This document shows positions 11,305 to 33,306 of a DNA stretch of 64,000 bases, one piece after another; position 1 is the stretch's first letter; each line of letters opens with the position of its first letter. The translations under genes were made by a program, and so were the position numbers. The stretch comes from Escherichia coli. GTDB taxonomy: Bacteria; Pseudomonadota; Gammaproteobacteria; Enterobacterales; Enterobacteriaceae. Under the pieces are notes generated by a model. The model saw nothing but the letters and a program-made list of their open reading frames with translations, did no database searches and was not told the origin of the DNA. The stretch is from NCBI RefSeq assembly GCF_017348835.2, contig NZ_CP071375.1. The stretch is one strand, 5' to 3'.

Positions 11305-12588
11305 TTACAGACTTCTGGAAGGTTGCGCAGCTCTTACAACACGCGGTTGATCTTCCGCGGCGTCTTCCAGCGCACTTAAATCACGGTCTTTCACTTCTGG
11401 CATTTTCAGCGCAGAGATTAAACCAATCACTGAATATGCCATGATCATAATGGCGATCGGATACCAGGATTCCGTCATGGTGCAGAAAATACCCGCCAGG
11501 ATAGGACCAAAACCGGAAGCGATAAGACCACCAATTTCTTTAGAAATAGCCATCCGGGTAAAGCGGTTTTTACAGCCGAACATTTCTGCCATGGTAATGT
11601 TTTCCAGAGCAAATAATCCCAGCACCGCACAGTTATGAATCACAATCAGTGCAACCATAATGGTGCTCGGGGCATAGCTTTTATCTACGATGATAGAAAG
11701 CATTGGCCATGCCAGCACAATCGCAGAGGTATTCATAATAATATACGGGATCCGGCGACCAATTTTATCGGATAACCAACCAAGGAACGGAATGGTCATA
11801 AAGCCGAGAATCGAACTGATCATCAATGCATCTGTTGGAATTGCTTTGTTAAACAATAACGTCTGTACTAAATAGCCTGCAAGGAAAGTCTGAATTAAAC
11901 CGGAGTTACCCGCCTGACCAAAACGCAGCCCTGTTGCCAGCCAGAAGGATTTGCTCTGGAACATGCTACCAGCAGGTGCAGGTTTTGCTGTCGGTTGGTT
12001 GCTGTCGTTAACCTTCTCAAAGACCGGGCTTTCTTTCAGATTCATACGCAACCAGATAGCAAAGACCATCACGACAACGCTCGCCAGGAACGGTATACGC
12101 CATCCCCACGCCAGCAGTTCCTCTTTACTGAGAATGAAGAACATAAAGGCCCAGATTGCCGTTGCGCTTAAGGTTCCGCAGTTAGTTCCCATAGCCACAA
12201 ATGAGGAGATAATTCCGCGCTTACCTTTTGGCGCATATTCCGCCAGCATCGTACCGGCACCGGAAATTTCCGCACCCGCACCCAACCCCTGAATAATACG
12301 CAGCGTCACCAGCAAGATGGGGGCAAAAACACCAATCTGTGCATAGGTCGGTAACACTCCAATTAAGGTGGTACAGATCCCCATCATGGTGATGGTAATA
12401 AAGAGCACTTTTTTACGCCCTATTCTGTCGCCCATTTTGCCGAAAATAAATGCTCCGACAATACGCGCCACATAACCTGCACCGCAGGTTCCCATTGCCA
12501 AAATTAACGCCATTGCCGTTGATGATTCAGGAAAAAATATTTCATGAAACACTAACGCAGCGCCGAGCGAATATAACTGGAAATCCAT
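11305..12588 (-). pseudogene. ydfJ: MFS metabolite transporter YdfJ, 5'-truncated by prophage insertion
   Basis: 427 aa ORF starts exactly at the prophage junction; the missing N-terminal 28 codons are at 33292-33374 on the other side of the prophage. Confidence 0.75.
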
Positions 12589-12594
12589 AATTCA
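12580..12594. repeat. Prophage att core copy (gaaatccataattca)
   Basis: Near-identical to 33292-33306; lies at the ydfJ junction. Confidence 0.55.
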
Positions 12595-13374
12595 CAGGTG
12601 TTTTTTCCCATCCTGTGGTTTCCTTGGCGTTTTCTAGGTTTTTTCAGATAGTTGCATTTTTTAAAAAGCATCCTAAGTTCGATCTCAGTGTCTATCTGGG
12701 GCCTATTTCTGTCCCATATATGCCCCAAAAAAAACTCCCCAACAGATAAGTAGTTTTTTCATGGATTTATGCGTAAAATCAAGAACGGCTGGAAATCATT
12801 CAATACTCACACTATCGAAAAATTTACCAGCCAACCGCAGCACGTTCTTGCATAAGGCGTGTCTGCGGTTTTTCAACTATTCAGATACATCACTCCCATC
12901 ACATTCATTCCTCCGCATCAAAGGCATATAGGCTATATCACCTTGATATTTTTATTTTTCAGATAAAAACTGTTATCTATGTATACTTTTAAACCCAATC
13001 CGTGTAGAGTCTCTGCATAAGATAGTTTGCAGTTGCCGCTTCAGCTTGCGCCATAAATCGCCTGATTTTTGCTGCCACCTGTTAGCATTCCTGTATACCT
13101 GAAACGACAATGTTTATCTACGAACTTTAAGAACACCCAAGATAAAAATTGTCAACTATATCATATATAACACATTACTAATTCGAGGCTATATGAACAG
13201 CATACTGATAATCACATCTCTCCTTATCATATTCAGCATTTTTAGTCATGCCCTAATAAAATTAGGGATTGGCATATCCAATAACCCAGACAAAACCGAT
13301 GTATAAGTCAACATATCCTGAATCAGACATACAATATCGCAATGAAAATCAATAATATTTTAAGGAATATCTTC

Positions 13375-13608
13375 ATGAAATCAAAAGACACCCTAAAGTG
13401 GTTCCCTGCGCAGCTTCCTGAAGTAAGAATTATCCTAGGGGATGCTGTAGTGGAAGTAGCAAAACAGGGAAGACCTATCAATACCAGAACATTGCTTGAT
13501 TACATTGAAGGAAACATAAAGAAAAAATCATGGCTGGATAACAAAGAATTATTACAAACAGCGATATCAGTTCTTAAAGACAACCAAAATTTAAATGGTA
13601 AAATGTAA
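13375..13608 (+). CDS. ydfK: Small prophage protein YdfK (77 aa)
   Basis: MKSKDTLKWFPAQLPEVRIILGD...; AT-rich upstream leader. Confidence 0.7.
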   Translation: MKSKDTLKWFPAQLPEVRIILGDAVVEVAKQGRPINTRTLLDYIEGNIKKKSWLDNKELLQTAISVLKDNQNLNGKM

Positions 13609-13924
13609 TATAATAAACTTACTTTTTTATCATTTTTCCACTTTAACAACATTTTGCTCCACTTTTCCACGACCAAACAACTTGAAATCTGGTTAAAATA
13701 ACACGCAACACTATTCTTCTTCCTTGAGTCCGCCCGGAACTCGAAAAACAAACCGAGTTAAAGCCATTTTTCACAAAATCGATTTTGGGTCTCACCAAAA
13801 TTACGGGGTTGCATACGCATTCGTTTATTTTCGAACGTGTACATACAAATATGCACAAAAATAATCAAAATTATTTTCTGAGATGCATTATGATATGAAC
13901 ACCAATTTCGTATAGAGTCTCACT

Positions 13925-14515
13925 ATGTCTCGAATTTTTGCTTACTGTCGGATATCAACGCTGGATCAGACCACCGAAAATCAACGCCGGGAAATCGAAA
14001 GTGCAGGTTTTAAAATCAAACCTCAGCAAATAATCGAAGAACACATTAGCGGCTCAGCAGCAACCAGTGAGCGTCCTGGTTTTAACCGGTTGCTTGCTCG
14101 CCTGAAATGTGGTGATCAATTGATTGTGACAAAACTGGATCGCCTTGGTTGTAATGCAATGGATATCAGGAAAACAGTGGAACAACTGACCGAAACAGGT
14201 ATCAGAGTGCATTGCTTAGCATTGGGGGGCATTGACCTGACCAGTCCAACAGGAAAAATGACGATGCAAGTAATTTCAGCAGTCGCTGAATTTGAACGAG
14301 ACCTTTTACTTGAACGCACTCATTCCGGGATAGTAAGAGCCCGGGGCGCAGGGAAACGTTTTGGTCGACCACCTGTGTTAAATGAAGAACAGAAACAGGT
14401 GGTATTCGAACGAATTAAGTCAGGTGTAAGTATAAGTGCCATTGCCCGGGAATTCAAAACCTCGCGGCAAACCATTTTAAGAGCCAAAGCAAAACTTCAG
14501 ACACCTGACATATAA
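13925..14515 (+). CDS. pinQ: Serine recombinase / DNA invertase Pin
   Basis: 196 aa; resolvase catalytic N-domain and C-terminal HTH. Confidence 0.85.
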
Positions 14516-14612
14516 AAAATAATCTCGGTGTGAGATGCTTTACGTCTTCCAAGCCACCTTCCTTGCCGTAAATGGAAAGATACATCTAATTATAGAATTT
14601 ATATGTTTTACC

Positions 14613-15188
14613 CTACGGCAGTGCTGGCCATTCAATATCCTGTGCAGTTGACGTATCAACACGGTTCAGCAATACCCGATACTTTTTCCATGCTTCCAGC
14701 AACGAGATTTCTTCCTCCGTTGCAATTTCCAGATCTGCAGCATCCTGAAGCGGCGCAATATGCTCACTGGCTACCTGCATCAGGCTGTTTTTTGTTTCTT
14801 CCGCCTCCCGGATCCGGAACAGTTTTTCTGCTTCCGTATCCTTCACCCAGGCTGTGCCGTTCCACTTCTGATATTCCCCTCCCGGCGATAACCAGGTAAC
14901 ATTTTCCGGTAACGGACCGAGTTCAGAAATAAATAACGCGTCGCCGGAAGCCACGTCATAAACCGTTTTACCCCGATGATCTTCAACGAGATGCCACGAT
15001 GCCTCATCACTGTTGAAAACAGCCACGAAGCCTGCCGGAATATCTGGCGGTGCAATATCGATACTGTTTGCTGGCAGACCTGTATGAGGCGGAATATATG
15101 CGTCACCTTCACCAATAAATTCATTAGTTCCGGCCAGCAGATTATAAATTTTTATGGTCCGTGGTTGTTCACTCATTCTGAATGCCAT
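14613..15188 (-). CDS. tfaQ: Tail fibre assembly protein
   Basis: 191 aa; adjacent to tail-fibre C-terminal module. Confidence 0.75.
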
Positions 15189-16741
15189 TATGCAAGCCTC
15201 ACAATATAGTTAAATGCGATGTTTTTGACGGTGTTTTCCGCGTTACCAGCAGCGTTAACGGTGATGGTATGTCCATGTGAACCAATCGCAACGGAGTGCG
15301 TATGAGCACCAATACCGACAGTATGTGCGTGTGCACCTGCGCTTGCAGCAGTACCCGATACAGAGTGCGTATGAGCGCCTGCAGAAGAAGTGTTAACACT
15401 GTATTTAGAGTAATCAGGTGATCCACTTCCCGGAGCACCACTGGAACCACCTGAAACAAATGTCATCGAATGGGTATGTGCACCGGCTGAAGCAGCCGTA
15501 CCGCTAACACTATGGGTATGCGCACCAGTGTTATTCGTGGATTTAGTGCCGTAATCAAACGACGATGTGGTTTTCGTCCCCAAATCCGTACTGGATACGC
15601 TGGCGCTGTGGGTGTGTGATTTAATGCCGTCCTGTTCCTGAGACAATACGGCTCGATCACTGGCGGGCTTGCCCTTAATCGTCCAGCCACGCATATCCCC
15701 TTTCGTTTTCATCCAGTCTTTGACAATCTGCACCCAGGTGGTGAACGGGCTGTACGCTGTCCAGATGTGAAAGGTCACACTGTCAGGTGGCTCAATCTCT
15801 TCACCGGATGACGAAAACCAGAGAATGCCATCACGGGTCCAGATCCCGGTCTTTTCGCAGATATAACGGGCATCAGTAAAGTCCAGCTCCTGCTGGCGGA
15901 TGACGCAGGCATTATGCTCGCAGAGATAAAACACGCTGGAGGGGTCATCCGGCGTCCATTTGAGGCCAAACGGCGTCTCTTTGTCGCCAAATTTAAGATA
16001 CTGCTCCTCCCCGCAGTGCGGGCAGGCAACATGAAAACGCATAAAATGCGGGGATTCACTGGCTGCACGCTCAATCTGGCAGGTGCCTCTCACTTTGGGC
16101 GTGGAGCCACGGATGGACTTTGGCCAGACCGAGCCTTCAATACGTTTGTCGCCAAGGAACGTCGGAGAGCCTTCCTGTTCAATATCCTCATCAAAGGCAG
16201 CAAGTTCATCATAACCCGCCACATCCACCGACTTTTCACGGTAGTTTTTTGCCGCTTTACCGCCCAGGCACCAGAAGCCACGACCATTGGAAAAACGCTT
16301 CATAGTGAGCGTGTTATCCCGGTGCTTTTTGCCATACCACGGAGCCAGCGCCAGCAGCGACGGAATATCGCGGATGGTCGGCTCAACGTGGGTTTTCATA
16401 AAGTTCTCGGCATCACCATCCGTCGGCAACCAGATAAGTGTGTTGCGCTGCTTATGCTCTATAAAGTAGACATAAACACCCAGCAGCATTTTGGAATAAC
16501 CGACACGGGCAGACTTCACCACATTCACCTCACGGATGTAGTCGCTGCCCATCGCATTCATGATGGCCCGCTGAAAGGGCAGTGTTTCCCAGCGCCCTTC
16601 CTGGTATGCGGATTCTTTCGGGAGATAGTAATTAGCATCCGCCCATTCAACGGCGGTCTGTGGCTCCGGCCTGAACAGTGAGCGAAGCCCGGCGCGGACA
16701 AAATGCCGCAGCCTGTTAACCTGACTGTTCGATATATTCAC
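15188..16741 (-). pseudogene. stfQ: Chimeric ORF: lambda gpA-like large terminase N-terminal region fused in frame to side-tail-fibre C-terminus
   Basis: N-terminal ~345 aa match lambda gpA from memory; C-terminus has GAHTHS repeats typical of lambda Stf; morphogenesis genes in between are absent. Confidence 0.75.
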
Positions 16742-17261
16742 TCAGCAACCCCGGTATCAGTTCATCCAGCGCGGCTGCTTTGTTCATGGCTTTGATGATA
16801 TCCCGTTTCAGGAAATCAACATGTCGGTTTTCCAGTTCCGGAAAACGCCGCTGCACCGACAGGGGGATCCCGTCGAGAATACTGGCAATTTCACCTGCGA
16901 TCCGCGACAGCACGAAAGTACAGAATGCGGTTTCCACCACTTCAGCGGAGTCTCTGGCATTTTTCAGTTCCTGTGCGTCGGCCTGCGCACGCGTAAGTCG
17001 ATGGCGTTCGTACTCAATAGTCCCTGGCTGGAGATCTGTCTCGCTGGCCTGCCGCAGTTCTTCAACTTCCCGGCGCAGCTTTTCGTTCTCAATTTCAGCA
17101 TCCCTTTCGGCATACCATCTTATAACGGCGGCAGAGTCATAAAGCACCTCATTACCCTTGCCACCGCCTCGCAGAACGGGCATTCCCTGTTCCTGCCAGT
17201 TCTGAATGGTACGGATACTCGCACCGAAAATGTCAGCCAGCTGCTTTTTGTTGACTTCCAT
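16716..17261 (-). CDS. nohA: Small terminase subunit, Nu1 homologue
   Basis: 181 aa, [29 protein letters not shown]...; lambda-type cos immediately upstream. Confidence 0.85.
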
Positions 17262-17438
17262 TGTTCATTCCACGGACAAAAACAGAGAAAGGAAACGACA
17301 GAGGCCAAAAAGCCCGTTTTCAGCACCTGTCGTTTCCTTTCTTTTCAGAGGGTATTTTAAATAAAAACATTAAGTTATGACGAAGAAGAACGGAAACGCC
17401 TTAAACCGGAAAATTTTCATAAATAGCGAAAACCCGCG

Positions 17439-17450
17439 AGGTCGCCGCCC
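17439..17450 (-). other. Lambda-type cosN cohesive-end sequence (GGGCGGCGACCT on minus strand) with lambda right-end-like flank
   Basis: Exact 12-mer; flanks resemble lambda left and right ends as recalled. Confidence 0.75.
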
Positions 17451-17649
17451 CGTAACCTGTCGGATCACCGGAAAGGACCCGTAAAGTGATAATGATTATC
17501 ATCTACATATCACAACGTGCGTGGAGGCCATCAAACCACGTCAAATAATCAATTATGACGCAGGTATCGTATTAATTGATCTGCATCAACTTAACGTAAA
17601 AACAACTTCAGACAATACAAATCAGCGACACTGAATACAGGGCAACCTC

Positions 17650-17844
17650 ATGTCAACGAAGAACAGAACCCGCAGAACAACAACCCGCAACATCCGCTTT
17701 CCTAACCAAATGATTGAACAAATTAACATCGCTCTTGATCAAAAAGGGTCCGGGAATTTCTCAGCCTGGGTCATTGAAGCCTGCCGCCGGAGACTAACGT
17801 CAGAAAAGAGAGCATATACATCAATCCAGAGTGATGATGGATGA
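17650..17844 (+). CDS. Small prophage protein (YnfO-like position)
   Basis: 64 aa ORF; function unknown. Confidence 0.4.
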   Translation: MSTKNRTRRTTTRNIRFPNQMIEQINIALDQKGSGNFSAWVIEACRRRLTSEKRAYTSIQSDDG

Positions 17845-18094
17845 ACATCCCGGTTTCTTTACCTTCCCTCCCTCCCCGCACAGAACTGGCGAGCGTGAGG
17901 GACCAATATGTGAGCCATAAATGCCTTATCTTCAGAAATGCAGTTGGTATCCGAACAGGACGATATTGTAAATTCACCTAAATACGAGGCATTGCTGTAG
18001 TTGAATTGCAGTACTGTATTAGCCTGACAGTGACAGAATACGATATTGACTCTGTCACTTGTGAAATGGTCAGAATGGTTAGCAGTTATGGTGA

Positions 18095-18301
18095 TCAGTC
18101 AACCAACAGGGAATAATCCTTCGTATTCTTATCGTGCTTTACTAACGCGGCCTCAATTGCCCTGAATGCTTCCAGAGATACTTGATGTTCTATACATGCA
18201 ATTACAACATCCGGGTAACCCATCGAAATGGTGCTATTAAGCATAGTTTTTACACGAACCTGCTCCTGGGAGGGGGCATCAATGTATTGATCTTTATGCA
18301 T
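18095..18301 (-). CDS. Hypothetical prophage protein
   Basis: 68 aa ORF only. Confidence 0.3.
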
Positions 18302-18596
18302 TTTGTCGCTCCATTCGTTTGCTCTTCACTTGCGGCTAAAAATATAACGTCAAATCACTCAGCATGAAAGAGTGAAAGTTTCAGCGCGTTTCCCTTACAT
18401 AATCTGTCGTTTGTATTCTCTTCAGGCATACCGGAAAGACTAGGTATTGTCACACAACCAATACCATCGACAATCGAGATTTATATCTATTCGGTAATGT
18501 TTAAATATAACAAAACCCCGTAAAAACGAGGTTTATGGGTAATTTGTATTGTTGAATAGCATCTGATGAGAAATTGATGCTAATACTATAAACATG

Positions 18597-18770
18597 CTAG
18601 ATTAAATCAATCTTGATATCATAGCTTTCAAGACCAGTCATTTTTTCCCGTGCAGTAAACTGGATACTGGTAACTTCTTTCCCGGTCTTTTTCTTAAGCT
18701 CAATGATTTTTTTTGTTATATATTCAGAAATATCTGCTTCTGTTTTTGTTTTTAACTCTTCAATGTTCAT
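18597..18770 (-). CDS. gnsB: GnsA/GnsB-family small protein (57 aa)
   Basis: MNIEELKTKTEADISEYITKKIIELKKKTGKEV...; start at the internal Met of the 88 aa ORF. Confidence 0.7.
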   Translation of the reverse strand: MNIEELKTKTEADISEYITKKIIELKKKTGKEVTSIQFTAREKMTGLESYDIKIDLI

Positions 18771-18942
18771 CATTTCCTCTTTTAGTCTGTTATGACTGTC
18801 CTGGTACACAGTAGTGTCAATTATATGGAGCAAACGTATAAAAGATAAGATGAAACATCGCAATAATCAACATACGACGGTCTAAATTTCACACAAACAG
18901 ATAAAAATGATTATCATTTATTATCAATGCATTAGAATCAAA

Positions 18943-19212
18943 TCAATTCAAGAGTCTCATTGCTGCTTCCAGAATTTCTTCTGAAGTTACATGTCGATCC
19001 GCTGCTACATAAATGACTTTATGATCTCCGGTCAGAGATGGAAACCCTGCAGCCATTACAGTGAGGTGTGTTGTTTCGCCATTTGGATATTCACGCATGA
19101 TGGTGTTAACTCCGGTCATCACTGGCACTACCATTGCTGGTTCAGAGTTAAAAAAAACTATTATTTTTTTCATAATGTTACCGTAATATGTGAGTATCCA
19201 TCGACTAGACAC
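18943..19212 (-). CDS. Small prophage protein (YnfN-like position)
   Basis: ORF only; true start may be an internal Met. Confidence 0.4.
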   Translation of the reverse strand: MSSRWILTYYGNIMKKIIVFFNSEPAMVVPVMTGVNTIMREYPNGETTHLTVMAAGFPSLTGDHKVIYVAADRHVTSEEILEAAMRLLN

Positions 19213-19444
19213 TAAGCAAAAAAGCTCCCGAAGGAGCCTTCATTTTCACTTTCTTAAATCTAACGACAGATGGCTAACATTTAAGTATTGTGAAATATTA
19301 TCAAATGTAATCATCATTGATTTACAAAAGATACATTTTGCCCCGAAAGGATTTCTGTCAGAAACATCAAAAGATGATGTTCTATACTGAGAACCATGGC
19401 AACACGGGCATCTAAAGTGAATATGGTTTGTAATATTTTCTACC

Positions 19445-19657
19445 TCAAAGTGCCACTACATGAACAGCTGCAGGGCCTTTAGGTCCGTTCTCAATACCAA
19501 ATTCGACTTCCTGATTCTCAGTTAACGTTTTGAAATCGTTGCTCTGAATAGCTGAGAAATGCACAAACACATCTTTGCTACCATCTTTCGGCGTGATGAA
19601 ACCAAAACCTTTTTCAGGGTTAAACCATTTCACTAAACCAGTCATTTTGTTAGACAT
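19445..19657 (-). CDS. cspI: Cold-shock protein CspI
   Basis: 70 aa CSD protein ([21 protein letters not shown]...); long AT-rich leader. Confidence 0.85.
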
Positions 19658-20020
19658 CATTATTACCTTTTGAAGAAGTTAGCCCTTGGGCAGAATGGTC
19701 CGAAAAAAAATATCAGAGAGAAAAACCAACAAGGAAATCTCAAGAGGTACAAATAATAAAATTATAACAATGACTGCTTCAGATAATTTTGTAACAAACC
19801 AGAACACCATTAACGCATGATTAACCAACCATAGCAAGGATTACTTTTGTAAAGAAAAACACACGAATGAAACAATAGCTTTATTTATTAATAAAACGTG
19901 TCATTCTGTCTAATGACCTTTTATCTTACCCTTAAGATTTCAAGGATTTTGACTCATGGAAGAGTCCTTTTTATTTAAATTTCACATTCAGCGCTAAAAA
20001 TAATCCGATTTAATATTAAT

Positions 20021-21050
<1,030 letters not shown>

Positions 21051-21371
21051 GGATATTTATCAGGATTTATCGGCTTCAAATCCCCGGATATGTTAAATCT
21101 TACCTCACCAGTGATGGGCACTGGCGGGAGGAGGATGTCAATCTGATAAACACAGAGGTGACTATGGATTACACAAATCTACCAAAACAAACTTTTGCTG
21201 ATTTAATCGCACTCAGGCAAGCAGTCGTAGCTCTAATCAACTTGTTGCCGGAGAAGGAAAAGGAATTAGTTAAAGCGCTTCTTAACAGAACTGCCGCCGA
21301 TTTTTCATCATATCCACTGACAGATGACCTTGCGGACCTTCCTGAATTAATTGCAGCGTCCGCCATTAAGC

Positions 21372-21923
21372 TTACTGAAGAGATTTACCCTCCTCAAAAA
21401 TCTTCACAAAATTCCTGCGAGTAACTTCAATGCAATAATCGTAAAACGCCGCAAACTGCTCATCGCGGCGTTTTTTTTCATCTTCAGAAGGAATCAGCAC
21501 CGACAATTTTTTATTCAGATCAGCGACGCTGCCCTCCAGTTTTTCAATGGGCGATTCAATATCATCTTTTTCTGACCGCAATGCCGTCGGTGGCGTCTTC
21601 AGAGAACCAGTAATTCTTCCCGGTAGCTTTCCTTTGTAGGTTATCCACACATTCTGCGCCTCTAAAATTATGGGGCGCTTTTCCGGCGACTGCTCATCCC
21701 CTTCACATAACCCGGCAGCAACATCCAGGAAGACCTGTCTGATGCTCATTCTGGCTGCTGCCTCATAAAACTCCAGCGCGGCACCTTCAACACGGTCCAG
21801 CGAGATGTCCAGGTCAAAAATTTCACCGTCAAAGCGTTCTTTGTCCTGTAATGCTAAAGTTACCGTAACTTTATTCTCAAAATTGCGGATCCCTTTCACA
21901 ATCAGTTCATAGTTTTGAGTCAT
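21372..21923 (-). CDS. Prophage protein between holin and lysozyme (YdfR position; possibly DUF1327-like)
   Basis: 183 aa ORF; family assignment from memory only. Confidence 0.45.
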   Translation of the reverse strand: MTQNYELIVKGIRNFENKVTVTLALQDKERFDGEIFDLDISLDRVEGAALEFYEAAARMSIRQVFLDVAAGLCEGDEQSPEKRPIILEAQNVWITYKGKLPGRITGSLKTPPTALRSEKDDIESPIEKLEGSVADLNKKLSVLIPSEDEKKRRDEQFAAFYDYCIEVTRRNFVKIFEEGKSLQ

Positions 21924-21927
21924 TGAA

Positions 21928-23110: not shown

Positions 23111-23433
23111 CATTCTACATTCCTTAACTTGAGCCTTTCGGCATAAATGGTTTGCATAACAGAAACGACTTCGTACTTAATTGGAGAGACTCAAAGAAGG
23201 AATAAGTGAATAACACCTGAAATGAGAACTGCTTTAGTAAACTACTTCGTATATCGTCTGTTCTTCAAACCGACGCAGTCATTAACTCATAGTTGAACAT
23301 ATGAAGCAATGTTTATTTTAGACATCCAGCCACCTTCAACCCTATCAAAAAAGTAGTTTTCTCCAGGAACGTGTGTATGGTGCACCAGGTTATCAGTATT
23401 AAGGAGTTTTTCTGTCCCCTAAAATGACAGGAA

Positions 23434-23650
23434 TTGTCAAAAACTTTGACTACAAAAGCAGCAAAGGTCTTATATTCCCATCCGATGGCGTATCGATGCC
23501 CAGCTTCACGTTTCAGCTCTCAATCTTCGAGATGCAGAAGAAATTACCACAGGATTACGCGTGGAATTTTGCCGGATAAATGGTTCGCGTGGACCTTCAA
23601 CTGCCAATGTTTATCCCGGGATGAGATTCAATATCTCTATTGCCCCATTT
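23434..23650 (+). pseudogene. cspF: CspF/CspH-like cold-shock gene remnant (frameshifted)
   Basis: N-terminus [22 protein letters not shown], then CSD C-terminus ([19 protein letters not shown]) in another frame. Confidence 0.6.
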
Positions 23651-23656
23651 AAAGCA

Positions 23657-23692
23657 CAAAAACCCGCTTATAAGCGGGTTTTCTACTTTTTT
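23657..23692. terminator. Bidirectional terminator (aaacccgcttataagcgggttt)
   Basis: Palindromic hairpin with T-runs on both strands, between the cspF remnant and quuQ. Confidence 0.6.
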
Positions 23693-23788
23693 CTAAACGT
23701 CGGATACACAAAGCCCATCGTTGAGAAAATCTTATCCATGTTTTTTGAAAAATGCAAACATCATGTCGCCATCTTCAGCAAAAATCAT

Positions 23789-24493
23789 TTATCTCGTCAC
23801 CTTCCTCAATTGCGCTTCCGCGTATGCTTCTTCCTGCCAGCACTTTGTTACCAGTTTACCAATGACGTCAGCATACCCCTTATACCACTGATAATCGGTC
23901 AGGTCTGGTACCAGCTTCTGGACATGACGTCGTGCCAGCGTGGTCGGTAAACGACTAAACCGGTTTCCATTACAACGCCCACAAATCTTATATACCGGTA
24001 CGCCATGAAACCGGGTTCTTTTTTCATCCAGAACAATCCCTTTACCCTTACACCCTCTGCACGCTGTGCTGACTTCGCCCTTACCATGGCAATGCTGACA
24101 TAGTTCCTTTACCCATTCTTCCTTGATTACAGATTCCCCGCGTCTGTAGTGTTTCACCACTTCGCGCAATACATTATAAAATCCCGTACCTGAACAATGC
24201 TCACAGCGAGCCTTACTTGCCGCAGACCTAGAGTAATCAGCAAAGGCAAAATTCACGAGGTAAGGAATAATCTGTAACCGGATTTCTTCACTCAATTTGT
24301 TCAATGTCGGGTTATCCAGTGCCATCGCGTAATTTAGCAGGCCTTCAATCGCAAACTGAGGGTCCTGAACACCAACTTTTGCCAGAAATAAGGCCAACCC
24401 AAGTGGTGCTTTCGACTGCACCATCCCCTGCGCTGCCATTACATCCGTAATTGTTAAACAACCGGTGCCTGTCGCTGGAGCGTCATCGCTCAA
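23789..24493 (-). CDS. quuQ: Q-like late-gene antiterminator
   Basis: 234 aa with Cys-rich zinc-finger region (CEHCSGTG...CQHCHGKG...CRGCKGKG). Confidence 0.75.
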
Positions 24494-24555
24494 TTTTGGA
24501 GATTTTGGGGAGTTGAACCGCCCCGGGTTTCCTGGAGAGTGTTTTATCTGTGAAC

Positions 24556-25443
24556 TCAGGCTGCCAGATCATTATTTCCGATGGAAGCATAATAAGCTTT
24601 TTCTGCTTCTGCCGGAGGAATATGGCCCAGCCTTTCCAGCAATCGTCGATTGTTATACCAGTCCACCCACGTTAGTGTGGCCAGTTCCACTTCTGTCCGG
24701 TTTTTCCAGCTCTTACGGTGTATTACCTCCGCTTTGTAAAGACCATTGATGCTCTCAGCCATCGCGTTGTCATACGAGTCGCCAGTACTCCCTGTTGATG
24801 CCAGTAATCCGGCTTCCTTAAGCCGCTGCGTGTAGGCCAGCGATACATACTGAGAACCTTTATCACTGTGATGGATTGTGCCGGACGGCCGACGGGCCCA
24901 CAACGCCTGCTCCAGTGCATCCAGCACGAATGTTGTTTCCATGGATGATGAGACCTGCCATCCCACGATGTATCCGGCGAACACATCAATGATGAACGCC
25001 ACATAAACGAAGCCCTGCCATGTGCTTACCCAGGTAAAATCAGCCACCCACAACTGGTCTGGACGTTCTGCCACGAACTGACGGTTTACGCGGTCGCATG
25101 CGGCAACGGCTTTCCGGCTGACGGTAGTGCGGACCTTTTTACCCCGGAGAACACCGGCAAGTCCCATAACTGCCATGAGACGTGCCACAGTGCATCTGGC
25201 CACTCTGATACCTTCCCGTAACAACTGACGCCAGACTTTACGCACACCGTATACCTGGTGATTTTCATCGTATACGCGCTGTATCTCTTTCTTCAGCCAG
25301 TCATCGTGCTGCGCACGGGCACTGCGTTTATCCGGATGATGTCGCTGTTGCTGACAATGGTAATACGTTGACGGGGCAATATGCAGTTCGCTGCATACCG
25401 GTCCGACCCCGTACTGCTCACGCAGCTTATCCAGCAGTGGCAT
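24556..25443 (-). CDS. IS3-family transposase OrfB (DDE catalytic domain)
   Basis: 295 aa integrase-core ORF. Confidence 0.85.
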   Translation of the reverse strand: MPLLDKLREQYGVGPVCSELHIAPSTYYHCQQQRHHPDKRSARAQHDDWLKKEIQRVYDENHQVYGVRKVWRQLLREGIRVARCTVARLMAVMGLAGVLRGKKVRTTVSRKAVAACDRVNRQFVAERPDQLWVADFTWVSTWQGFVYVAFIIDVFAGYIVGWQVSSSMETTFVLDALEQALWARRPSGTIHHSDKGSQYVSLAYTQRLKEAGLLASTGSTGDSYDNAMAESINGLYKAEVIHRKSWKNRTEVELATLTWVDWYNNRRLLERLGHIPPAEAEKAYYASIGNNDLAA

Positions 25444-25769
25444 TATTTTTTCCAGAGGCGGTCGAACTCCGCCTTCGCAAAATAAGCGGAAGCCTGGCGA
25501 AGGATATCGTTACTGCGGCGCAGTTCACGATTTTCACGTTCCAGCTCTTTCAGACGCTGACGTTCAGCGGTGGTGAGTCCACCATCACCACTCCCGGTAT
25601 CCCGCTCATGCTGGCGAACCCAGACACGCAGAGTCTCCGGCGTACAGCCAATCTTTGGGGCAATGGAACAAATTGCCGCCCACTGTGAGTCATATTCATC
25701 CTGACTTTCCAGAACCATACGAATCGCCCGCTGACGGACTTCGGGGGAAAAACGAGTATTTTTAGTCAT
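25443..25769 (-). CDS. IS3-family transposase OrfA (HTH + leucine zipper)
   Basis: 108 aa, [33 protein letters not shown]... Confidence 0.85.
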
Positions 25770-25874
25770 CCTGTTTACCTCTTTCTCAGGGAGTTTAGTC
25801 TCCAGGATTTCCGGGGCGGTTCATTAAAGATTTTTTTGTGCATGCCGATAGTGCTTTTTTAAAAGGAGAAATCT

Positions 25875-26207
25875 ATGTCTGTCACAATTCAGGGAAATAC
25901 CTCAACCGTTATTTCAAACAACTCCGCCCCGGAAGGAACATCAGAAATAGCCAAAATCACAAGACAAATTCAGGTGCTGACTGAAAAGCTTGGGAAAATC
26001 TCATCGGAAGAGGGGATGACGACACAGCAGAAAAAAGAAATGGCTGCATTGGTACAGAAGCAAATTGAAAGCCTCAGGGCTCAACTGGAGCAGTTGTTAA
26101 GGCAGCAGGCAGAGAAAAAGAATGAAGACGCGACAGTTCAGCCTGATAAAAAAGAAGAGAAAAAAGACGATACAAATACCGCTGGCACCATTGATATTTA
26201 CGTCTAA
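25875..26207 (+). CDS. flxA: FlxA-like protein (110 aa)
   Basis: Length and coiled-coil-like sequence; Qin context. Confidence 0.6.
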   Translation: MSVTIQGNTSTVISNNSAPEGTSEIAKITRQIQVLTEKLGKISSEEGMTTQQKKEMAALVQKQIESLRAQLEQLLRQQAEKKNEDATVQPDKKEEKKDDTNTAGTIDIYV

Positions 26208-26221
26208 GTGACAGCCGTATT

Positions 26222-26244
26222 GTGGCCCTCATCGGGCCACTTTT
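26222..26244 (+). terminator. Rho-independent terminator after flxA
   Basis: gtggccc tcatc gggccac followed by TTTT. Confidence 0.65.
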
Positions 26245-26643
26245 CGCCATCAGCCTTTTCTTTAAAGACATATTATCTTTGTATCATTTCTGATAGTTAA
26301 CATTACAAGATATAAGTAATGGACGCACTCCCAATTAGTCTATTTAAATCGCCACGAGTTTAACTGACAACCCATGATCAATTATGAATTGCAACTATTT
26401 CTGTAGTCACTTTTGTGGGGACAGTCCACAAAACTGCCAACTTCCGCTTCTTGCTCTTAGCGGACATTAGCATAGGCTATTTACCATAACGCCTCATTAC
26501 GCGCACCGCCCAGACTGACTCAGCGCGTTTCTGGCATATCCCCGGTAAAACAAGTAACAAACCACCCGAAAATGAACACCAGAAACGCGACTTAAGAATC
26601 TACCCTATGAATGGATATGCACTCAACCGAATCGATCTTGGTT

Positions 26644-27985
26644 TCAATCTTTTTTATCGGGATCAGGCTTCTTTTTAGGTAACTTCGGGGGCTTAACTTG
26701 CTGATGACTTTGCGTTCGGCGCGTAAGCCAGGGATGGTCAGCTTTAGGTTTAACATAGTATTTTGAGCGTAAATCAATACGGGCATTATCCACTCGTTCA
26801 TGGACACTCTTTTCATCATCCAGTGGTATAGGCTCCGGGCCATCAACATACTTTTCCCAGCCCAGCGCTTTCCCGTCATACAGAACGTTAATTTCACCGT
26901 CAAAGTTCTCGCATACAGTAACAACCGAATGCCTAAGTCGATATCCCCGGCCCTCACTGCGTACCTGAAACGCACTGCTTTTGTACTGGAAAGTGAGATT
27001 TTTAGACAGAACGCGCTTCGCCTGTAGGCTGAAGATATAACCCAGTTCCTCTTCAGAATGGTGCACATCAAGATGAGCATTATCAGTAGTACGAGGCGAC
27101 GTAGCGAACCGGTTGTTATAGGCTTCAATAAAGGTCGGCAACCATGCATTTGCTGTTTCAATATCACTGATATTCTGAAGCCGCATTTCTTTGACCAGCC
27201 TGTCCTGTAGTGTCTGATTGGCGCGCTCTACCCGCCCTTTTGCCTGCGGGCTGTTGGCATGGATTGGCTCGATGCCCAGTGTCTTTATCGCACGAGTGAA
27301 CTGGGTCAGCTCACCTTCCCGCTCTGGGTTATTTACCCTGAATATACTGTGTCTATCAGAGTAGAGAGCGAGCGGTACGCCATGATCATTAAGGTAACCC
27401 CGGAGGGTTTCCATGTAAGCCCGGGTTGTTTCAGCAGGCACAAAACGCAACGCCATCAACGCACTGGTGGCATCATCAATGAAAACGATCAGTGTACATC
27501 TGGGGCCTCGATTTTCAAACCAGTCATGAGGTGAGCCATCAATCTGGATCAGTTCACCGTAAGATGGTCGTCGCATGCGGCGTTGATATATACGGGCAAT
27601 TTTACGACGGCGTTCACGCCATACCCCCCTCTTCTATCATCCACTTTCTGAGAGTTTCAACGGATAAAGATAAACCGTGTATCTCGCGCAATTTTTCGCA
27701 CGCAAACGTAGGTCCAAAATCAGCGTAACGGCCTTTGAGGAGTGAAATTACTGTTGCTCTGAATTCAGTAGAAAAGGAATTATTAGGACGCTTTCCACGT
27801 CGGTGGGAAACCAGACCAGAAGGCCCTTCATTTCTATACCGTTGCACCAGACGTTTAACCTGCCGAATAGAAATGCCAATGCGTGCCGCAGCTTGTTCCT
27901 GAGTAATATGTCGATTAATTGACTCCTGAATAATCTGAAGTCGGTGGAGTTCCTTATGACTCATCGTAACAGTTTCTTTGGTCAT
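26644..27985 (-). pseudogene. DDE transposase (integrase-core; IS481/ISNCY-like) split by a frameshift
   Basis: N-terminal HTH part 27614-27985 and catalytic part 26644-27576 are in different frames; junction at a C6/G6 run around 27624-27629. Confidence 0.65.
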
Positions 27986-29651
27986 GAAAAATCCCCCAGA
28001 GAATTGTCTGGGGACATTTTAGAATGGTTCAAAGGGGACATTACAGCTTGGTGTTAACAATAGCCTGCTTCTCCTTGCCTTTCGGCACGTAAGAGGCTAA
28101 CCTACATGTGTCTGGCATGAAATTGGCCTCAGATTAATGTTAAGCGTCTTGCAGGACGCGTAATGTTAACTGGGGCTTTTCTCTACCTGCCGTTGGTGTT
28201 CGTGCCCGAGGCAGATAGCCTCAAGCACCCGCAGTCATTCTACTTAACTAAGATTTCCCCGCAAACCGTTTTTGTCCAGCACAGTAAATATCCAACTAAA
28301 CCAATGGAGTTCGCTGTATTTACCGCCAGTATTCAATGCACATGACCGCCATGAACACCCCTAAAAAAAGGGCATTTATATATCCAAATATTAATATCAA
28401 AACATCAACTTTTTCCATATACCTTGCTGTGAAGATGATGGGCATACATGATGCGAACAACCAGAACGCAACAAACAAAAACTGCAATGCGTTTTTCATT
28501 ATTCCTCCTACAATCAATGTGCAATTACATTTAAACACACCTCAATTTGGCCGGACATATAAATATCTAAACCAGAAAAAATCACTTACATAGCGTTACA
28601 AACTCTTTAGTCTAAAGGTTCATCGTAAAACATTCCCCATACTTATCAGTCCGTTCCGCGCCAGGTAGCTCATTGCCTTATCTGGCAACCTGTAATCAGG
28701 TTTCCGCTTTTTCAGTTGGCTGGTCGTTTAACCGACATAGTTAACCCATTAATCTAGTTGCCGGATGTTGGTGGATTTTCGCGTTTTAGTTGTTCATAAA
28801 AGTGCACAGCTTTAACCAATTCTTCTGATGTAACCGGGACTGGTGAGGCAGTGAATAAGGCCTGAATTTGATAGTTCGGCCTGTCGTTACAATCCTCTTT
28901 TTTCGGTACATATTTCCAGTCACCAGACCACTACTTCCCCTGAAAGTCCGTAACGCCTTTTTTCACGTAGCGATATCGCCATGTCACTGGTTTTGCTTGC
29001 CCCGCCGTTTCATGCCCTTCCTGATAATTAATCTCGCTCATTCATCGCCCCACTCATCACAATATGCTTCGACCGGAGTTTTTCCCGCTTCATAGTCATC
29101 ACGCTAGGATTCGACATCAGCAGCACTTCCACCGCGTAACTCACCATAGTCCATTAATAGTTCATCCCGCTCTTCAAAACTGATGTTATATTTAGCTGAA
29201 CAAAAATCAGCCACTTTGTTCTTCCTCATCGTCTTTTATTTCGTGGTATGAGTAATTGCAGTAGTTAAAGAAAATTTCTTATGCTCCGTCATGAATTTCA
29301 TCAGGTGTTGCGTCATCGTCCACTTCGAATACATCCTCAAAATCTCCACCAGCTATTCCCGTTTCAATAATAATTTTGAACTTTCGCATTTCACTACCGC
29401 CCTTTCGGGCGGCCTCCTGATGTTCTGAGGGTGCAGAAATCCATCCGGTTAAGGATTAAGTTTTATTTACAGAACTGAATTTAATTATTCAGATATACGT
29501 ATCTGTAACCTTACGAATCTACTCACTGGATGCCTCTTTCATAAAAATAATCCAGTGGGTTTTATCGTTTTTTCCCTGTTCGTTGACAGATAACAGGCTT
29601 TCTATCTGTCAGTGCCAGAATCTGGCTTACCGGTATTTGCGTTTCATTCCA

Positions 29652-30008
29652 TTAAAAAATCAGAACGCCGTGCGGCCTCAACACCCGAAAAGCTTCTTTA
29701 AATCTCTGTCGCAAATCATCACGCCAGGCATCTTTATTCAGCCGTCCATATTTCTTTCCCATCCAGGCGTTATCACCAACACGCTCAAGATGCGGAGGGT
29801 CTAATACAACCATCGAAAAAGATGCGTCTGCAAATGATAATGCACGAAAATCTGCGATAATGTCAGGGCTGATAATCAAGCGTCTCCCATTGCGTAATGT
29901 GTATCCTTCTTTTCTGATATCGCTAAATATCGCCCGTTCGTCAGACTTATCGAACCAGAACATGCGGCTGCCACAGCACATATCAAGAATGGTTGCCGGT
30001 GCACTCAC
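29652..30008 (-). CDS. DNA methyltransferase fragment (DPPH-type motif)
   Basis: 118 aa with VVLDPPHL motif; short for a complete MTase. Confidence 0.45.
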   Translation of the reverse strand: MSAPATILDMCCGSRMFWFDKSDERAIFSDIRKEGYTLRNGRRLIISPDIIADFRALSFADASFSMVVLDPPHLERVGDNAWMGKKYGRLNKDAWRDDLRQRFKEAFRVLRPHGVLIF

Positions 30009-30535
30009 TGCGCCACGTCCTGAAAATTACCCTGATAGAAAGCCAGTATGCGCTGCATAACTTCGCTCTTCCGGCACTCGCGACAGATTATGTTTAGGCG
30101 ACTGTCGTAGCGACGTATTTCTCCGTCAGGTGATGACCAGATAAGGTCCGGATCAACCACAGCAGGTTTCTTCACCTTTGCCCTCGAGAGTTTTTTGCGG
30201 GCGTTTTGCCAGTCCTTACGCGCCTGTTCAGAGGGGAATAACCCGTATCTGATATCCCAAAAAATGAAACCGCACCGGAAGCTGAACCATCTGTAGAGCG
30301 TGAGGGGCCGTTCTATTTCCTCTTCGCAGATAAGGACGGAGAAAAATACGGTCGCGCAAACAAACTTTCTGGTCTGGATAAGGCACTGGCTGCTGGCGCC
30401 ACTGAAATCACAAAAGAAGAATATTTTGCCCGAAAAAATGGCACATACACGGGCTTACCGCAAAATGTAGATACCGCTGAAGATTCAGAACAACCAGAGC
30501 CGATAAAAGTTACCGCTGACGAAGTAAACAAAATT

Positions 30536-31615
30536 ATGCAGGCAGCCAATATCAGCCAGCCTGACGCCGATAAGTTGCTTGCTGCATCACGTGGTGAATT
30601 TGTTGAAGGGATTAGTGACCCGAATGATCCGAAATGGGTTAAGGGGATCCAGACCCGCGATTCTGTGAACCAGAACCAGCATGAATCGGAACGGAACTAC
30701 CAAAAAGCGGAACAAAACAGCCCAAATGCGTTACAAAACGAGCCAGAAACGAAACAGCCTGAATCAGTGGCGCAACAGGAAGTGGAAAAAGTCTGCACCG
30801 CCTGCGGTCAGACCGGCGGCGGCAACTGCCCTGATTGTGGCGCGGTGATGGGCGACGCAACATACCAAGAAACATTCGATGAAGAGTATCAGGTTGAAGT
30901 TCAGGAAGATGATCCGGAGGAAATGGAAGGCGCTGAACATCCACACAAGGAGAACGCTGGCGGCAATCAGCATCACGATAGCGATAATGAAACTGGCGAG
31001 ACGGCAGATCACTCAATTAAGGTGAACGGTCATCACGAAATCACATCCACCAGCAGGACGTGTGACCATCTAATGATCGACCTTGAAACCATGGGAAAAA
31101 ATCCTGATGCCCCGATCATCTCAATAGGTGCAATATTTTTCGATCCGCAAACCGGAGATATGGGACCGGAATTTAGTAAGACTATCGATCTGGAAACTGC
31201 TGGCGGAGTCATTGATCGGGACACCATTAAATGGTGGCTTAAGCAATCACGCGAAGCGCAATCGGCCATTATGACCGATGAAATCCCGTTAGATGATGCA
31301 CTGTTACAATTGCGGGAATTTATCGACGAAAACTCCGGTGAATTTTTTGTTCAGGTTTGGGGAAATGGAGCCAACTTCGACAACACGATTTTGCGCCGTT
31401 CATACGAACGGCAGGGGATCCCCTGCCCGTGGCGTTACTACAACGATCGCGATGTACGCACAATCGTTGAGCTGGGGAAAGCCATAGACTTCGATGCCAG
31501 AACGGCTATTCCATTCGAAGGTGAGCGCCATAATGCACTTGATGACGCCCGTTACCAGGCAAAATACGTTTCAGTTATCTGGCAAAAACTGATCCCGAGT
31601 CAGGCTGATTCTTAA
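30536..31615 (+). CDS. Prophage protein with C-terminal DEDDh-type 3'-5' exonuclease domain
   Basis: MIDLETMG... and HNALDDARY motifs; acidic low-complexity N-region; the frame is open upstream without an ATG. Confidence 0.6.
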
Positions 31616-31687
31616 TGTTCAACTGTCGCCGGTTGTGACTGGTATTCTGCAACCGGCGCTCGTCTGATGTAAGAGATAAAGAAATCG

Positions 31688-31939
31688 ATGAGCGAAGTAA
31701 TCATGATTGTCTCTCCCGGCAAATGGGTATCCGAAGAGCAGTTAATTGCGCTGAAAGGAATAAAAAAAGGTACGTTAAAAAAGGCCCGGGAAAAATCGTT
31801 TATGGAAGGAAGGGAATATAAGCATGTCGCTCATGACGGTATGCCATGGGATAACAGTCCATGCTTTTACAACCTGGAAGAAATTGATCGCTGGATTGAG
31901 CGCCAGGCATCAGCAAGACCAAGACGTCATCTTACTTGA
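31688..31939 (+). CDS. Excisionase-like protein
   Basis: 83 aa basic ORF immediately upstream of the integrase. Confidence 0.55.
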   Translation: MSEVIMIVSPGKWVSEEQLIALKGIKKGTLKKAREKSFMEGREYKHVAHDGMPWDNSPCFYNLEEIDRWIERQASARPRRHLT

Positions 31940-31958
31940 CTAAAAGCCACACTAACTA

Positions 31959-33254
31959 ATGAGAGAAGTTGAAATGAAATATCCGACAGGCGTGGAAAAC
32001 CATGGAGGGAAATTACGTATCTGGTTTGTTTATAAAGGCGTAAGAGTCAGGGAAAACCTGGGGGTTCCTGACACAGCAAAAAACAGGCGCGTTGCAGGTG
32101 AGCTACGCGCCTCTGTTTGTTACGCAATAAAAACTGGTGTTTTCGACTATGCAAAACAGTTTCCCTCCTCACGCAATCTGGAAAAATTTGGTGAGACTCG
32201 ACAAGATTTAACCATAAAAGAACTGGCTGAAAAATTTCTGGCACTGAAAGAAACTGAAGTCGCAAAAACATCACTCAACACATACCGTGCCGTCATCAAA
32301 AATATCCTGAGCATAATCGGTGAAAAAAATCTTGCCTCATCGATTAATAAAGAAAAATTACTGGAGGTTCGTAAAGAGCTACTGACTGGATACCAGATCC
32401 CCAAAAGTAACTATATTGTTACACAACCAGGGAGATCGGCTGTAACTGTAAATAATTACATGACAAATCTTAACGCCGTGTTCCAGTTTGGTGTTGATAA
32501 CGGTTACCTGGCAGATAACCCGTTTAAGGGGATCTCGCCATTAAAGGAATCAAGAACCATTCCGGATCCTCTTTCGCGGGAGGAATTCATCCGTCTTATC
32601 GATGCGTGCAGAAATCAGCAAGCCAAAAATTTATGGTGTGTTTCTGTTTATACTGGCGTTCGCCCTGGTGAGCTGTGTGCACTTGGATGGGAGGACATAG
32701 ATCTGAAAAATGGAACAATGATGATCAGGAGAAATTTAGCAAAAGACCGTTTCACGGTACCAAAAACACAGGCGGGAACCAATCGGGTCATTCATCTTAT
32801 TAAGCCAGCAATCGACGCTCTCCGGAGTCAGATGACATTAACGAGACTGAGCAAAGAGCATATCATTGATGTTCACCTCAGAGAGTATGGCAGAACAGAA
32901 AAACATAAATGCACCTTTGTTTTTCAACCTGAAGTGTCAGCGAGAGTAAAAAATTATGGTGACCATTTTACCGTTGACTCAATAAGGCAGATGTGGGACG
33001 CAGCGATAAAACGTGCCGGACTCCGCCATCGAAAATCATATCAGTCGAGACATACTTATGCCTGCTGGTCGCTGACAGCTGGTGCTAATCCGGCATTTAT
33101 AGCAAACCAGATGGGCCATGCAGATGCGCAAATGGTATTTCAGGTATACGGAAAATGGATGTCTGAAAACAATAATGCACAGGTAGCTTTGTTAAATACA
33201 CAGTTAAGCGAGTTTGCCCCAACCATGCCCCATAACGAAGCAATGAAAAATTAA
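31959..33254 (+). CDS. Tyrosine-type site-specific integrase (apparently intact)
   Basis: 431 aa; C-terminal catalytic region with R...HxxR...Y context; ~40 bp from the att repeat. Confidence 0.85.
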   Translation: MREVEMKYPTGVENHGGKLRIWFVYKGVRVRENLGVPDTAKNRRVAGELRASVCYAIKTGVFDYAKQFPSSRNLEKFGETRQDLTIKELAEKFLALKETEVAKTSLNTYRAVIKNILSIIGEKNLASSINKEKLLEVRKELLTGYQIPKSNYIVTQPGRSAVTVNNYMTNLNAVFQFGVDNGYLADNPFKGISPLKESRTIPDPLSREEFIRLIDACRNQQAKNLWCVSVYTGVRPGELCALGWEDIDLKNGTMMIRRNLAKDRFTVPKTQAGTNRVIHLIKPAIDALRSQMTLTRLSKEHIIDVHLREYGRTEKHKCTFVFQPEVSARVKNYGDHFTVDSIRQMWDAAIKRAGLRHRKSYQSRHTYACWSLTAGANPAFIANQMGHADAQMVFQVYGKWMSENNNAQVALLNTQLSEFAPTMPHNEAMKN

Positions 33255-33291
33255 TTTAATATTTATCAAATAGTTGACACGTATGACTCTT

Positions 33292-33306
33292 GAAATCCAT
33301 AAATTC
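33292..33306. repeat. Prophage att core copy (gaaatccataaattc)
   Basis: Direct repeat of 12580-12594. Confidence 0.55.

Follow-up and report, generated by a model that had tools for sequence, protein, structure and literature searches.

A Qin-type prophage in ydfJ of an Escherichia coli chromosome: attachment sites, gene content and the split host gene

Where exactly does the prophage in the ydfJ gene of Escherichia coli begin and end, and what becomes of the gene that it splits? This question was addressed for contig NZ_CP071375.1 (assembly GCF_017348835.2), of which one stretch of 64,000 nucleotides (nt), here called the window, was analysed. In the window, two parts of ydfJ lie on either side of a 20.7-kb element. 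An initial annotation, made from the sequence alone, had described this element as a Qin-like prophage within ydfJ, with a short direct repeat as both attachment (att) cores. This description is borne out: the bacterial site attB is found in 2006 genomes, the phage site attP in four phage records, and the K-12 junctions are the same. The element is almost certainly a Qin-type prophage, left by an mEp460-type lambdoid phage that entered ydfJ by Int-mediated site-specific recombination and subsequently decayed.

Integration of Qin at the 5' end of ydfJ, with loss of the promoter and truncation by 28 codons, was reported in 2019 (PMC6379469). In that study Qin was present in 48% of 638 strains, and its size ranged from 11 to 97 kb across 189 strains (PMC6379469). 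A published table likewise gives ydfJ as the site of Qin in strains W, K-12, B and Crooks (PMC3032704), and the RefSeq record of MG1655 carries a feature "cryptic prophage Qin" at 1632277..1652745. The site, the arrangement, the promoter loss and the 28-codon truncation are thus already known from the K-12 annotation and PMC6379469, and the window element is a variant copy. Added here are att sites backed by four phage records, a reading of the repeat difference as native heterology, intact int and xis genes as the common state, and an insertion sequence (IS)-associated loss of hokD-relBE that appears to be private to the strain.

The att sites and the two parts of ydfJ

The left copy of the repeat is the 15-nt GAAATCCATAATTCA, and the right copy is the 16-nt GAAATCCATAAATTCA; their longest exact common stretch is 11 nt. 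The initial annotation had given the left copy (12580-12594) exactly and the right copy from its correct start, but ended the latter at 33306, one base short of its true end at 33307. As a bare sequence match, the repeat is within chance and statistically unremarkable. Exact direct 11-mer pairs number 157 in the 23-kb region versus ~76 in shuffles, and the repeat pattern, with two mismatches allowed, was matched at least once in 18 of 100 shuffles. The evidence must therefore rest on the position of the repeat. The abundance of exact 11-mers would suit a chance match, with the real prophage ends lying elsewhere. However, homology to the empty-site genomes, to K-12 and to four phage attP regions stops right at the repeat on both sides. 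Since the break falls precisely there in all comparisons, the chance reading was rejected; we consider it vanishingly improbable.

The empty site was reconstructed by joining the outer flanks (390 nt). An unbroken match to it, with 97-99% identity, is present in 2006 of 5426 complete E. coli genomes. In the remaining genome matches the alignment is broken at the repeat (query positions 176-191), the left half extending to position 190 and the right half starting from 172-175. The window's left junction is present in 3161 genomes. The joined outer flanks contain one uninterrupted ydfJ open reading frame (ORF) of 455 codons. The initial annotation had named two findings that would speak against it, namely a ydfJ starting at the MDF codons in prophage-free strains and a repeat lying off the junction in a comparative alignment. 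In prophage-free genomes ydfJ has 1368 nt (455 amino acids, aa) and starts with MTIEK, and the repeat lies exactly at the junction. In the empty-site strain 05-3629, as annotated by the Prokaryotic Genome Annotation Pipeline (PGAP), rspA, rspB, the 1368-nt ydfJ and ydfI follow each other head to tail on one strand, with a gap of 57 bp between rspB and ydfJ. In the window the element has ydfI and the 3' part of ydfJ (ydfJ') on one side and rspB-rspA on the other.

Further support is provided by phage genomes. The joined inner flanks (597 nt, comprising the int-proximal and the ynfT-proximal ends) are contiguous in four phage records, listed with their identities in Table 1. In the annotated records of mEp460_ev081, Tritos and HannyBb, the 2472-nt exonuclease gene is followed by xis, int, attP, a ydfK-like gene and a serine invertase gene; mEp460_ev081, for which the widest flank was fetched, continues with tail-fibre assembly and tail-fibre genes. 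This order is a circular permutation of the window's prophage map, as expected for a prophage. No phage genome of this integrase type with a different int-proximal junction sequence occurred when checked. In all four phages the exo-xis-int-attP-ydfK-pin-tfa-stf block is 96-99% identical to both prophage arms, and their attP core has the same sequence as the phage-derived halves of the window's attL and attR. The phages differ in being complete 45-49-kb genomes; they carry a full exonuclease gene (2472 nt), a tail-fibre gene of 3072 nt and morphogenesis genes, which the window element has lost.

The attP core of mEp460_ev081 and HannyBb is the 15-nt form cttGAAATCCATAATTCAcagg, and the attB core of the empty site is the 16-nt form ctgGAAATCCATAAATTCAagcg. 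In attL the 15-nt form stands between host sequence on the left and phage sequence on the right; in attR the 16-nt form has phage sequence on its left and host sequence on its right. Both are reciprocal hybrids of a demonstrable attB and attP with a common short core. The one-base difference between the repeats is thus native attP/attB heterology and not decay. This would place strand exchange inside the common GAAATCCATAA, as tyrosine recombinases exchange strands within an identical overlap region. Exchange within this stretch would leave the phage 15-nt version at the left junction and the host 16-nt version at the right one.

The initial annotation had let the 427-codon ydfJ frame begin at the left repeat and had located the missing 28 codons, with their upstream signals, next to the integrase gene; both statements hold, the displaced part including the ribosome-binding region. 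The start codon of ydfJ' (ATG, 12586-12588) lies within the left repeat copy. The missing codons, MTIEKHERSTKDLVKAAVSGWLGTALEF, run on the minus strand from 33384 down to 33301, end inside the right repeat copy and are preceded by the native upstream region. The right copy begins 37 bp past the integrase stop (33254). Read on the ydfJ strand, the attB core begins with the third base of codon 26 and ends with codon 31 (L-E-F-M-D-F); these residues lie in the first transmembrane helix. At attL the phage supplies TGA ATT immediately 5' of the Met29 ATG, and the ydfJ' remainder therefore has no replacement N-terminus. ydfJ' has 1284 nt, equal to K-12 b1543, and matches TIGR00883 (metabolite/H+ symporter) with 450 bits over profile positions 7-400 of 400. 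In related strains PGAP annotates the equivalent ydfJ' as a pseudogene without N-terminus.

Known E. coli prophages offer a comparison. e14 gives icd a replacement 3' end, and Rac leaves TtcA with an altered N-terminus (PMC6379469). As at ydfJ, e14 in icd and Rac in ttcA of K-12 involve a tyrosine integrase aimed at a short core inside a coding gene (PMC6379469). They differ in that the phage at ydfJ provides a stop codon and no replacement N-terminus, so that the gene is truly truncated.

At the right end the native start and 28 codons of ydfJ read through the core into prophage DNA as a 42-codon ORF. Its K-12 counterpart, ynfP, ends at 36 codons owing to a point difference. With its native upstream region in place, 57 bp downstream of rspB, the 42-codon ORF may be both transcribed and translated, yielding a short hydrophobic peptide. 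For annotation, ydfJ in this strain is to be treated as a split gene, with ORF 33256-33384 as its orphaned 5' end and not as an independent gene.

Table 1. Features of the prophage, its junctions and its host flanks in the window, and phage records matching the reconstructed attP
Feature	Position	Strand	Basis
attL core GAAATCCATAATTCA, phage-type 15-nt form	12580-12594	.	left side as attB of empty site; right side as attP of mEp460_ev081 and HannyBb
attR core GAAATCCATAAATTCA, bacterial-type 16-nt form	33292-33307	.	core comparison
ydfJ' (3' 427 codons, MHS-family MFS transporter; starts at Met29 of intact protein)	11305-12588	-	ORF
Displaced ydfJ 5' end (native start and 28 codons, then through core into prophage DNA; 42-codon ORF)	33256-33384	-	K-12 counterpart annotated ynfP
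rspB and rspA (host genes directly upstream of ydfJ, same strand, in prophage-free genomes)	33442-35687	-	window ORFs and empty-site order
Left prophage arm	12595-15187	+	98.8% identical to mEp460_ev081 downstream of attP; 98.4% to K-12 Qin
ynfT	13193-13306	+	PGAP/K-12 annotation
ydfK	13375-13608	+	PGAP/K-12 annotation
pinQ serine invertase	13925-14515	+	PGAP/K-12 annotation; PHROG DNA invertase family match
tfaQ tail-fibre assembly	14613-15188	-	PGAP/K-12 annotation
Fusion ORF, 517 aa: terminase large subunit N-part (aa 1-349) and tail-fibre C-part (aa 349-517)	15188-16741	-	PHROG phrog_15, phrog_295
nohA (terminase small subunit), gnsB, ynfN, cspI, Rz, frameshifted lysozyme, holin, cspB, cspF', ydfT without first ~9 codons	16716-24513	-	PGAP, PHROG
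IS3-family element, IS629/IS1203 type, 1310 bp	24514-25823	-	terminal inverted repeats TGAACCGCCCCGG...; orfA 108 aa and orfB 295 aa
flxA, ydfW, split ISNCY (ISEsa1-like) transposase, decayed hok/sok, methyltransferase and DUF977 pseudogenes	25824-30274	.	PGAP, PHROG, Rfam
RecE-type exonuclease, 5'-truncated (last ~1340 of 2472 nt)	30275-31615	+	homology, profile match, PGAP
Excisionase gene xis, 83 aa, intact	31688-31939	+	83/83 residues identical to mEp460_ev081 Xis
Tyrosine integrase gene, 426 aa, intact	31974-33254	+	424/426 residues identical to mEp460_ev081 Int
attP match mEp460_ev081			99.8% identity
attP match PhiR42_1			99.3% identity
attP match Tritos			98.7% identity
attP match HannyBb			98.5% identity

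Gene content and decay of the element

The K-12 Qin prophage occupies the same site, and its attL and attR cores are base-for-base identical to those of the window, including the indel; the flanking 30 nt differ at 1-3 positions. About 11.7 of the 20.7 kb (~57%) align collinearly with 91-99.9% identity, comprising ynfT, ydfK, pinQ, tfaQ, nohA, gnsB, the csp genes, the lysis genes and ydfT. The integrase lineage is the same as well, with 98.7% identity over the part that K-12 retains (from window position 32095). In K-12, however, intQ is cut by IS2, whereas int and xis are full-length in the window. K-12 carries stfQ, ydfU-rem-hokD-relBE-ydfV and dicC-dicA-ydfABC-dicF-dicB-ydfD-ydfE, where the window has a terminase-large::tail-fibre fusion, an IS629-type element and a non-homologous 5.3-kb segment, respectively. 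The closest complete genome, that of the pig isolate F2_81 (NZ_CP043542.1), is 99.8-100% identical across the element except for one indel event and has the same junctions, fusion ORF, right arm and pseudogenes. It differs in keeping a 3139-bp ydfU-rem-hokD-relBE-ydfV segment, with no IS at that place.

The right arm holds the integration genes. Int contains an Arm-DNA-bind_2 domain (aa 4-67, E 1e-23) and a Phage_integrase domain (aa 201-392, E 8e-18), and its gene ends 37 bp before the attR core. This corresponds to a lambda-type layout, with an arm-binding and a catalytic domain and Int beside the att site. An intact integrase, xis and exonuclease arm had been proposed; this is correct for Int (424/426 residues) and Xis (83/83) but not for the exonuclease. 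Homology of the latter to the 2472-nt phage gene begins only at ~nt 1134, the first ~1133 nt being gone, and the 359-aa ORF corresponds to positions 465-822 of an exonuclease profile with 823 positions. PGAP annotates the same stretch in F2_81 as a pseudogene without N-terminus. At least 80% of the xis-int stretch was found in 2348 of 5426 genomes (~43%), a count of the DNA stretch irrespective of att sites and frame integrity. The IS2-truncated intQ of K-12 is therefore the less common state.

Towards the left, the fusion of terminase and tail-fibre parts is the scar of a deletion that took out all head and tail genes: PHROG matches revealed no capsid, portal or tail genes between the two parts. 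K-12 shows a different, larger deletion at this place, with nohA beside stfQ. The following region (16716-24513) is collinear with F2_81 at 99.8% identity and mostly with K-12 Qin at 91-99%. Overall, the element has no head, tail or replication genes. It is defective, as shown by the terminase/tail-fibre fusion, the truncated exonuclease, the frameshifted lysozyme and the pseudogenes annotated in the 99.8-100% identical F2_81 copy.

The absence of the K-12 toxin-antitoxin and dic genes has two separate origins. The initial annotation had placed an IS629 in lieu of the whole hokD-relBE-dicB segment. This stands for hokD-relBE, which lies within the 3139 bp that the IS replaces relative to F2_81 (the 5' end of ydfT (~9 codons), ydfU, a small ORF, rem, hokD, relE, relB and ydfV). 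It does not stand for dicB: positions 26829-32094 have no K-12 Qin homology, and the dicC-dicA-dicF-dicB immunity region is absent. This segment, which contains ISNCY remnants, the decayed hok/sok locus, several pseudogenes and the truncated exonuclease gene, is also present in F2_81, without any IS629 in it. Thus, the dic block is missing because a different, non-homologous segment lies in its place.

The IS itself has the ends TGAACCGCCCCGGGTTTCC... and ...GGAAATCCGGGGCGGTTCA. Its orfA and orfB match NCBIfam transpos_IS3, and an ALIL frameshift pseudoknot was detected with 120 bits. A length of ~1310 bp, TGAACCGCCCCGG inverted ends and orfA/orfB with a programmed -1 frameshift agree with IS629 (IS3 family, IS51 group), which we take to be the name of the element from its ends and size only. 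PGAP labels identical copies "IS3 family transposase" and ~96%-identical copies "IS3-like element IS1203 family". A literature search on the terminal sequence returned only papers on IS6110. The flanks, AGT and TTA, show no target-site duplication (3-4 bp would be typical of a simple insertion). This fits an IS-mediated adjacent deletion or a recombination of two copies and agrees with the 3139 bp missing beside the IS. No second IS629 copy, which would explain the deletion by IS-IS recombination, was found in the window. The junction between the shortened ydfT and the IS occurs in 0 of 5426 complete genomes, and the IS-associated hokD-relBE loss appears to be private to this strain. The lost stretch held two toxin-antitoxin loci, hokD and relBE. 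IS copies with 100% identity are found on E. coli plasmids, including NZ_CP043544.1 of a pig rectal-swab isolate, an accession adjoining the F2_81 chromosome.

The junctions, attB, attP, the gene content and the deletions are shown by the comparisons above; from them we infer the following order of events. A temperate lambdoid phage of the mEp460 type would have integrated into ydfJ at attB ctgGAAATCCATAAATTCAagcg via attP cttGAAATCCATAATTCAcagg. Integration would have left the 5' end of ydfJ (native start and 28 codons), together with rspB, rspA and their promoter region, at the right end, and the 427-codon remainder, starting at an internal ATG just after a phage-borne TGA, at the left end. 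The prophage would then have decayed to the present 20.7-kb cryptic Qin-type remnant. In the course of this decay, one deletion joined the terminase large-subunit gene to the tail-fibre gene with loss of all morphogenesis genes, the replication and immunity region was replaced or rearranged, and the 5' half of the exonuclease gene was lost. In the lineage of this strain, finally, the IS629-type element would have taken out 3.1 kb with hokD and relBE.

Some minor features of the element were noticed. The ISNCY (ISEsa1-like) transposase gene (26644-27985, minus strand) has been broken into two ORFs, an N-terminal one of 123 aa and one of 310 aa, the first ~240 aa of which carry the rest of the transposase match; this decayed element inside the prophage is common to F2_81 and PE164. 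An Rfam sok match at 28059-28230 (minus strand; 99.8 bits, gathering score 59) lies in the segment without K-12 Qin homology. No intact Hok frame was found beside it, a Hok-like frame being broken by stops, and the locus looks like a decayed second hok/sok locus. PGAP gives no annotation at this place in F2_81. Further Rfam matches above the gathering score are cspA-type thermoregulator leaders upstream of cspI and cspB (19399-19815 and 22882-23274, both minus strand) and an IS009 RNA inside tfaQ (14647-14845, minus strand).

Fate of the truncated ydfJ

In the protein reconstructed from the joined flanks, the Pfam MFS_1 match begins at residue 21. Since TIGR00883 matches from profile position 7, the cut costs the protein its cytoplasmic N-terminus and the beginning of helix 1. 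Without residues 1-28, the window ydfJ' does not encode the full 455-aa protein with a whole transmembrane helix 1.

Nothing speaks against the integration model, to which four limits apply. Loss or strong impairment of YdfJ function is something that we infer only. Of 10 occupied genomes sampled, 8 have an undamaged 427-codon frame, and the K-12 annotation keeps the coding sequence (CDS). A crude promoter/terminator scan, weak either way, found no sigma-70-like site on the ydfJ' strand between 12300 and 13300. Alleles of ydfJ are common to occupied and empty genomes, and a single ancient insertion followed by vertical descent is not established; repeated integration, precise loss or recombination must have taken place as well. 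Finally, homology to K-12 Qin is lacking over 43% of the element, including 26829-32094, and the name Qin here denotes the same site, integrase lineage and backbone, not the same gene set.

One could suppose that ydfJ' is still expressed and yields a working transporter from the internal ATG, the insertion altering the regulation of the gene rather than destroying it. The frame is indeed intact in the window, in K-12 and in six further occupied genomes, and positions 7-400 of the 400-position TIGR00883 profile are kept. RefSeq lists the K-12 CDS as "putative transporter YdfJ", and a preprint has ydfJ among the genes differentially expressed after DicC induction, which points to some transcript in K-12. 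However, the cut takes the first 8 residues of the MFS_1 match, corresponding to the first half of transmembrane helix 1. The phage TGA abuts the ATG, and the sequence there shows no purine run of Shine-Dalgarno type; nor was a promoter-like site found on the ydfJ' strand within 700 bp. A frameshift or premature stop is present in 2 of 10 occupied alleles (one 10-bp deletion and one Q422*) versus 0 of 6 alleles from empty sites, numbers too small to weigh. On balance, a working ydfJ' seems rather unlikely.

For ten occupied and six empty genomes, the ratio of nonsynonymous to synonymous polymorphism (pN/pS) of ydfJ' was also determined (0.022 for the occupied and 0.027 for the empty-site alleles). 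As a sign of selection on ydfJ' it was rejected, since occupied and empty genomes carry identical alleles. The alleles predate occupancy or move independently of it, so that the polymorphism did not arise after the insertion. The test is therefore uninformative, and the low pN/pS of 0.02 cannot be taken as a sign of selection since the insertion or be counted in favour of a working ydfJ'.

The insertion cuts ydfJ and ydfI off from rspA-rspB. The rspAB-ydfJI cluster is said to serve L-gulonate catabolism in prophage-free strains; a literature search on its function (gulonate) found nothing relevant. If this role is true, Qin-bearing strains may differ in L-gulonate catabolism.

Occupancy of the site and possible excision

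Identical ydfJ alleles occur in occupied and empty genomes. The allele of K-12 (occupied) equals that of strain 605 (empty) over 1284 nt, and the allele of S1-ESP-03-A (occupied) equals that of PRO_A (empty) apart from a 10-bp deletion. Because the alleles interleave between occupied and empty genomes, occupancy of the att site has been gained, lost or moved by recombination repeatedly.

The remnant might not be a mere fossil. With phage-identical Int, Xis, attL and attR, it may excise precisely, rejoining the 28 codons and the rspAB side to ydfJ-ydfI, and thereby act as a reversible switch resembling "active lysogeny". The sharing of alleles between K-12 and 605 and between S1-ESP-03-A and PRO_A fits repeated gain or loss. 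Int and Xis are identical to the phage record at 424/426 and 83/83 residues, the reconstructed 597-nt attP is ~1 position off mEp460_ev081, indicating conserved arm regions, and the joined flanks restore a perfect 455-codon ORF. Since all parts acting in cis and in trans are present in phage-identical form, excision would be mechanistically possible if Int and Xis are expressed. Against this, in lambdoid phages the early-left promoter and immunity region drives xis and int. This region is absent here, and minus-strand pseudogenes lie upstream of the truncated exonuclease gene. The interleaving of alleles could just as well result from new integrations of live phages or from homologous recombination between flanking sequences. 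The K-12 Qin prophage does not excise (PMC3105296), but there the integrase is broken, and the authors put the lack of excision down to the inactive intQ. Altogether, we regard an excising remnant as quite improbable.

The intragenic comK prophage of Listeria is an "active lysogeny" element. It differs from Qin, which is not known to undergo regulated excision. It is very doubtful that low-frequency or signal-driven precise excision makes the prophage a reversible switch on a sugar-acid uptake and catabolism operon rspA-rspB-ydfJ-ydfI. If it did, the sharing of alleles between occupied and empty genomes would partly reflect ongoing excision.

The decayed Qin-type remnant is probably not the only kind of prophage at this site. 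In the E. coli O55:H7 CB9615/O157:H7 lineage the attL junction is the same, but ~135 bp further on a different phage arm begins, which carries a DinI-like gene, and the match to the integrase DNA ends at query position 952. In this lineage a different lambdoid prophage with the same attP appears to occupy the site. Outside the prophage, Rfam identified an STnc560 Hfq-binding small RNA above the gathering score at 3035-3248 (minus strand).

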